Of a DNA stretch of 64,000 bases, positions 62,184 to 62,918 are shown piece by piece. The position numbers and the translations under genes were made by a program. How positions within the stretch are numbered: position 1 is the stretch's first letter; every line of letters starts with the position of its first letter. The notes under the pieces were generated by a model. The model searched no databases and was not told the DNA's origin. It saw only the letters and a list, made by a program, of their open reading frames with translations. The stretch lies in sequence record PQ571307; one strand, written 5' to 3'. Origin of the DNA: Shigella phage SF1-1.

Positions 62184-62918
62184 TTAGGCTCCTGTTGGTT
62201 TTAAGGACTCGGCACTTGAGCTACCGCTCTGAATGTTACGAACCGTGTGCGTGTGAGTATGGAATCCGATGCCATTACCATCTGTCATCAAACCGTTCTG
62301 ATCTATTTTAAGACCATTGATATCTGCTACGCCGCCTTTGAAAGTTAAATTACCACCTTTTAGATCCAAAGTCCCTGTGCCATCTGTAATAGTAATACCG
62401 GAGGTAGTAATATCTATTTTCATCCCTTGACTATTCCATATTGAAATATTACCTGTAGGGTCGAAAGAAGCGTACGTGTTTTTGTTATTAGAAATAACTA
62501 CTTTTTCAGAATCTACAGCTTCTGTTGAATCTGTTCCTGTAGCTATTTTAGGAATAAAACAAATAGGGTATAATCCACAAGGCTGCATAAAAGTGGATGA
62601 TGAAGAGGTTTCCCCACTAGTTTGCAGTGCATTAGAAGGATCTCGTTCAGAAAATATAACGGTCCCTAAATCTCCTGATTTAATAGGGAATGAGATTCTT
62701 CCTGTCCCACCACCATTAACCATAAAAGGAACATCTTCAAAAGTAGGATAATCTATTTCATCTTCACTAGATCGTGTGTTTTTAACAATAGATTCTAAAG
62801 TGACAGTTTTAGCACCATAATTAACGCCAGTCACACGGACTGGCAAGGCTGTATGGACTTCTGCTAATTGTTCTGTCATTAAGCCACGCATTGCTGTGAC
62901 AAAATTCAATGCATCCAT
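62184..62918 (-). CDS. putative baseplate central spike (gpV/gp5-like) with C-terminal HxHxH tip
   Basis: 244 aa; C-terminal GFHTHTHTV resembles the metal-binding HxH apex of phage puncturing spikes. Confidence 0.45.
   Translation of the reverse strand: MDALNFVTAMRGLMTEQLAEVHTALPVRVTGVNYGAKTVTLESIVKNTRSSEDEIDYPTFEDVPFMVNGGGTGRISFPIKSGDLGTVIFSERDPSNALQTSGETSSSSTFMQPCGLYPICFIPKIATGTDSTEAVDSEKVVISNNKNTYASFDPTGNISIWNSQGMKIDITTSGITITDGTGTLDLKGGNLTFKGGVADINGLKIDQNGLMTDGNGIGFHTHTHTVRNIQSGSSSAESLKPTGA

Follow-up and report, generated by a model that had tools for sequence, protein, structure and literature searches.

We find that the gene at positions 62184-62918 (minus strand) of the DNA of phage SF1-1 encodes, in all probability, the trimeric, Fe-tipped central tail spike of a phAPEC8-like Phapecoctavirus, a contractile-tailed myovirus related to phi92. 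The probability that we give to this reading is around 0.96. It is carried by orthology to a spike of known structure, by the domain layout of the product, by the conservation of two histidines and by the genomic context, and no result of the analysis argues against it. The DNA examined, hereafter called the window, is a stretch of 64,000 nt, and the spike gene lies near its right edge.

The spike reading is correct but was already known, and the protein is an ordinary, well-described one. Proteins 100% identical to it are found in GenBank for phages EF1-1 and WPEC1, where they are annotated as "baseplate spike", and copies with at least 99% identity occur in 62 phage records. The tail of the relative phi92 is fully solved, and the window can now be identified as belonging to a phAPEC8-like phage.

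Identity and domain layout of the spike

The spike gene and the domains of its product map as follows:
62184..62918, minus strand: central baseplate spike gene, 244 aa (ORF and orthology to the phi92 central spike, PDB 3PQI)
62601..62846, minus strand: N-terminal OB-fold domain, aa 25-106 (Pfam PF18352, E = 1.3e-10)
62271..62501, minus strand: beta-helical trimerization domain, aa 140-216 (Pfam PF21930, E = 8.5e-32)
62187..62270, minus strand: apex domain with HTHTH, aa 217-244 (aligns with the phi92 spike apex)

The open reading frame was confirmed as real. It begins with ATG, is preceded by the Shine-Dalgarno sequence AAGGAG, and specifies a product of 244 aa. Its start overlaps the stop codon of the hub gene (TAATG), and the start of the next gene is found 1 nt past the spike stop. 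Because the hub gene, the spike gene and the next gene are tightly packed and run in one direction, they are probably co-transcribed.

When the product was compared by phmmer with proteins of known structure, the central spike of phi92 was found as its match (3PQI_A and 21vq_t, E = 1e-116). The alignment pairs residues 1-243 of the spike with residues 1-244 of the phi92 spike and places HTHTH on HTHTH, and identity to the Justusliebigvirus (phi92-type) spike is 72%. Judged from its sequence, the product of 62184..62918 is orthologous to the phi92 central spike over its whole length. An earlier note on this DNA had proposed the gene as a candidate for a central spike, and the full-length match to a crystallised spike bears this out. 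PHROGs returned no match for the spike; its identity came instead from the Pfam and PDB sequence searches.

Both Pfam families were well above their cut-offs: the spike scored 41.6 bits against PF18352 (cut-off 26.1) and 109.4 bits against PF21930 (cut-off 27), with positions 1-75 of the 75 positions of the latter profile covered. The OB-fold domain would dock the spike onto the hub, a role taken from the phi92 and P2 structures. From the 72% identity to proteins that are trimeric in crystal and cryo-EM structures, we infer that the spike is homotrimeric, its chains intertwining in the beta-helix.

A monomer model made with AF2 from 21 homologues had a mean pLDDT of 69.6, with short beta-strands of pLDDT 83-93 in the region of residues ~140-210. 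The apex remained below 55 in this model, a low value that is expected since the apex would need both the trimer and the metal. In a Foldseek search, the best PDB fold match of the model was phi92 3PQI (E = 1.3e-21), with 3PQH alongside. The other top matches were all central spikes of contractile systems (PhiTE, SN Orf41, E217, Pa193, R2 pyocin, Bas63, Pam3 and P2 gpV), and weaker matches included VgrG and eCIS spikes.

Comparison with the phi92 spike (gene product 138; PDB 3PQI and 3PQH; 21vq chain t) revealed the same succession of OB-fold, triple beta-helix and apex and the same HTHTH; in both phages, the spike gene is flanked by those of the hub and the sheath initiator. The phi92 protein is 245 aa long, compared with 244 aa here, and the two phages belong to different genera of the same subfamily (Justusliebigvirus and Phapecoctavirus, respectively). 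The differences in sequence consist of a one-residue deletion in the beta-helix (TD-GTG here, TDAGGG in phi92) and scattered substitutions, and no functional difference is evident.

More distant spikes share the architecture. P2 gpV (PDB 3QR8) and the R2 pyocin spike PA0616 (PDB 4S37) have the same OB-fold, beta-helix and apex, as well as the HxH Fe cage. P2 gpV, too, has a motif of this kind, HTHKH. Sequence likeness, however, is limited to the 13-residue apex motif, the fold match with the monomer model is weak (3QR8, E = 1.4e-3), and P2 gpV has no sequence-level match to the Pfam N-terminal family. T4 gp5/gp5.4 and T6SS VgrG/PAAR are likewise trimeric spikes made of an OB-fold and a beta-helix, seated on a gp27-like hub and piercing a membrane upon contraction. 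In T4 and T6SS the tip is a separate PAAR protein, whereas here it is an HxH apex within the chain. Pfam detected neither a lysozyme domain, which in T4 gp5 separates OB-fold and beta-helix, nor any other additional domain, and OB-fold, beta-helix and apex fill all 244 aa; lacking a lysozyme domain, the spike is not of the T4 gp5 type. Neither is it a VgrG, since the hub is encoded by a separate, unfused gene of 336 aa. VgrG structures matched the spike model with E values of 1e-2 or worse and with TM-scores, normalised to target length, of 0.13-0.16 (Foldseek). On every feature that can be examined in the sequence, the protein appears as a member of the phi92-type, apex-domain spike family.

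One orthologue of the spike, in MZ501100.1 (excerpt coordinates 12001-12738), is annotated as "baseplate central spike and tail lysozyme". In the 244/245-aa spike family, Pfam detects no lysozyme domain, and the lysozyme part of the MZ501100 annotation has no support for the protein studied here.

The HxH motif and the tip of the spike

The earlier note had drawn attention to GFHTHTHTV, described as C-terminal and as resembling the HxH motifs that coordinate a metal ion at the tip of spikes. The resemblance holds, as judged by the conservation of two of the histidines, the Fe site of the phi92 spike and the alignment with the ligands of P2. The location needs a small amendment: GFHTHTHTV comprises residues 218-226 (nt 62241-62267) and HTHTH residues 220-224 (nt 62247-62261), and 18 residues follow GFHTHTHTV, so that the motif lies near the C-terminus of the spike and not at its end.

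Only four histidines are present in the spike (22, 220, 222 and 224), and three of them are in the motif. When the spike's own sequence was shuffled 200,000 times, the chance of finding HxHxH was 4e-4 and that of finding HxH was 0.049. One other HxHxH was found among the 98 stop-to-stop segments of at least 100 aa in the 64-kb window. Conservation provides a stronger argument for the motif than these shuffle statistics: in an alignment of 21 homologues, with identities down to 44%, H222 and H224 are invariant. The position of H220 is variable, with N or D in the more distant homologues, and the Ts between the motif histidines vary also. Since H220 varies while H222 and H224 do not, the "HTHTHT tip" of the earlier note is better described as the motif of an HxH cage, preceded by an additional histidine that is not conserved. 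The metal-binding interpretation is thus retained for H222 and H224, which occupy conserved ligand positions, but does not extend to H220. The motif maps as follows:
62247..62255, minus strand: HxH motif H222-T-H224, putative Fe ligands (invariance, P2 gpV alignment and phi92 Fe)

When the spike was aligned with P2 gpV using hhalign, H222 and H224 fell on H197 and H199 (13 apex residues, probability 27.5%), an alignment that registers the histidines but is by itself no evidence of homology. The link between P2 gpV and the spike at the fold level comes from Foldseek, not from this 13-residue profile alignment. The C-terminus of P2 gpV reads ...LHTHKHPGD; H197 and H199 are ligands of a buried Fe, and three HxH motifs form an octahedral histidine cage (bioRxiv 10.1101/2023.02.25.529910). 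In the cryo-EM structure of phi92 (2026), the trimeric spike consists of OB-fold, beta-helix and apex, with three HxH motifs coordinating Fe (PMC13450770). For the Fe ligand residues considered here, our sources are the P2 preprint and the phi92 cryo-EM paper. By analogy with both homologues, the HxH of the spike would be the conserved Fe cage motif, three copies of it would form an octahedral histidine cage, and each trimer would hold one Fe octahedrally with six histidines.

H220 is common to Phapecoctavirus and phi92-type phages, and its counterpart in P2 is H195. Instead of being a neutral neighbour of the cage, this histidine might serve as a ligand of the second shell or as an alternative one; it could, for instance, be a switch, sensitive to pH or redox state, by which the apex is loosened or spike release is aided once the membrane has been penetrated. 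We consider this speculation highly improbable.

A mechanism can be drawn from the solved phi92 and P2 homologues, which are the source of the trimer state, the Fe binding, the piercing role and the release of the spike proposed here. Three spike chains would associate, their N-terminal OB-folds resting on the trimeric hub where the tail tube ends; their middle parts would intertwine into a triple beta-helix, and the C-terminal apex would close as a sharp cone, stiffened by one iron ion that H222 and H224 from the three chains (six histidines) enclose octahedrally. Upon contraction of the sheath, this rigid tip would be pushed by the tube across the outer membrane. Dissociation of the spike would then leave the channel open for the tape measure protein and the DNA. 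In phi92, spike and plug are lost on contraction (PMC13450770). The apex and the histidine cage of P2 proved dispensable in laboratory infection, where only the diameter of the tip mattered (bioRxiv 10.1101/2023.02.25.529910). The functional importance of the iron tip is therefore less certain than its structure.

Genomic context and alternative readings

Baseplate genes identified in the window, besides the spike gene, are the following:
63938..64000, minus strand: 3' end (final 20 codons plus stop) of the gene in the phi92 plug (gp136) position, cut by the window edge
62918..63928, minus strand: baseplate hub, 336 aa, orthologue of phi92 gp137 (PDB 21vq_M, E = 2.6e-190)
61556..62182, minus strand: sheath initiator, 208 aa, gp25/gpW-like, orthologue of phi92 gp139 (PDB 21vq_L, E = 1.1e-101)
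51987..53474, minus strand: baseplate wedge protein, 495 aa, orthologue of phi92 gp145 (PDB 21vq_h, E = 5.3e-267)
51355..51984, minus strand: baseplate wedge protein, 209 aa, orthologue of phi92 gp146 (PDB 21vq_D, E = 5.9e-121)

The spike gene sits between the orthologues of the hub (gp137) and of the sheath initiator (gp139). Assignment of the hub is further supported by phrog_196 'baseplate hub' (1.8e-80) and by Pfam PF22759, and in the PDB search the product of 61556..62182 also matched the sheath initiators of PhiTE, Pam3 and Bas63. At the window edge, 63938..64000 reads ...TTGRDKRFVLVYIDNKPNQA*, the same as the C-terminus of a 137-aa ORF in NC_052654.1; the gene is a putative plug (gp136) gene, assigned by its position alone. 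For the 137-aa ORF (NC_052654.1 48830-49243; L001 27939-28352), which occupies the phi92 plug position, RefSeq NC_052654 has no annotation. The right end of the window thus represents the core of a myovirus baseplate, made of plug, hub, spike and sheath initiator. The earlier note had located the baseplate core there, which is accurate for these genes but leaves out the wedge genes, found ~9-11 kb to the left of the core with the fibre gene block in between.

The right-hand 8 kb of the window are 98.9% identical to Escherichia phage vB_EcoM-Ro121c4YLVW (NC_052654), and sequence comparison assigns the window to Phapecoctavirus (Stephanstirmvirinae), a group of ~150 kb E. coli myoviruses that includes phAPEC8. 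In NC_052654, the tube protein is an orthologue of phi92 gp131 (2.2e-95) and the sheath protein an orthologue of phi92 gp130 (2.1e-235). Judged by their position in this near-identical genome, both would lie 4-6 kb past the right edge of the window, and their presence in phage SF1-1 is expected from such near-identical genomes. The myovirus-type baseplate proposed in the earlier note is supported by the taxonomic assignment and by the gp130 and gp131 orthologues. The note had advised a search for sheath and tube beyond 63928, where indeed both are found in NC_052654; they are, however, upstream and not downstream in transcription, since the genes are on the minus strand. The absence of sheath and tube genes, which the note had named as an argument against a spike, does not apply, since orthologues of both exist in the near-identical genome. 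Reading rightward in NC_052654, against the direction of transcription, one meets in turn the genes for tube initiator, tape measure protein, chaperone, tube and sheath. The first of these bears the annotation 'tail fiber protein' there and was identified as the tube initiator gene from its position relative to PaulScherrer. The 64,000-nt window proved free of tRNA genes; in the related genome, a tRNA cluster is located past the structural module, ~17 kb beyond the right edge of the window.

Histidine cages of the HxH kind are found in tail fibres and tailspikes of phages as well (bioRxiv 10.1101/2023.02.25.529910), and the spike gene adjoins a long block of fibre genes. One might thus view the product as a fragment of a tail fibre or tailspike, with HxH serving as a metal site that registers the trimer, and not as a central piercing spike. 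We regard this possibility as extremely improbable: cryo-EM places the orthologue at the centre of the baseplate (PMC13450770) and the match to it is full-length, the product has an OB-fold hub-docking domain, the gene lies between hub and sheath initiator, and neither PHROGs nor Pfam yielded a fibre family match for the spike. A different doubt is raised by a neighbouring 717-aa protein, which matches the Pfam 'non-contractile tail sheath' families PF23844 and PF23845 as well as the N4 Gp64/Gp65 structures, and which is annotated as 'non-contractile tail sheath' in relatives. Taken at face value, these matches would point to a non-contractile, N4-like tail, and the spike-like protein would be the tail-tip plug of a podovirus or siphovirus. 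The likelihood of such a tail is close to nil, and we rejected it on the basis of taxonomy and of the sheath, tube, sheath-initiator and wedge genes: the window belongs to a Phapecoctavirus myovirus, orthologues of the contractile sheath and tube proteins gp130 and gp131 are encoded in the 98.9%-identical genome, and sheath initiator and wedge genes lie inside the window itself. The N4-like domains most likely belong to a lateral-fibre protein, and the name came by homology transfer. The contractile tail of phi92 has been shown by electron microscopy (PMC13450770).

A further alternative accepts the central spike but takes HTHTHT for a lineage-specific, low-complexity run that binds no metal, the tip being sharpened by a separate protein of the PAAR type. 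The variability of H220 and of the intervening Ts might be read in this manner, and T4-type spikes are capped by PAAR (bioRxiv 10.1101/2023.02.25.529910). Nevertheless, H222 and H224 are invariant and fall on the Fe ligands of P2 gpV, and the phi92 orthologue has the same HTHTH, with Fe density at the three HxH of its apex (PMC13450770). Spikes with an HxH apex, moreover, carry no PAAR (bioRxiv 10.1101/2023.02.25.529910). A run without metal seems very unlikely to us, and an Fe-tipped central spike is the reading that we prefer.

The fibre gene block

The spike assignment anchors the annotation of the neighbouring fibre genes, which are more variable and determine host range. The 717-aa protein mentioned above (56045..58198, minus strand) combines a Calx-beta domain with N-terminal and TIM-barrel domains of the N4 gp65/gp64-like 'non-contractile tail sheath' type. 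In all likelihood, it is a lateral fibre that bears a glycosidase-like module, and 'non-contractile tail sheath' would be a misnomer spread by homology transfer.

Between 53713 and 54022, one extra base was detected at ~53828-53833 (C5 on the minus strand, equivalent to G5; C4 in relatives). The extra base splits a small tail ORF of ~102 aa, annotated in relatives as 'tail protein' or 'tailspike protein', into pieces of 70 aa and 64 aa in different frames. In all 42 matching phage records, the extra base is missing and the ORF is intact. Probably the extra base either stems from an error in sequencing or assembly or is a frameshift private to this phage.

The tailspike slot (54159..56036, minus strand) is occupied by a 625-aa spike, while the closest relative has a different gene, of 762 aa, at this place. 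The 625-aa tailspike matches the solved tail spike 9vvr_A over residues 42-136 only, and the PDB sequence search gave no match between it and the phi92 gp143 endosialidase. Across 41400-56100, the best relatives cover only 86-88% of the sequence, as expected for the swapping of receptor-binding cassettes, which this partial coverage indicates.
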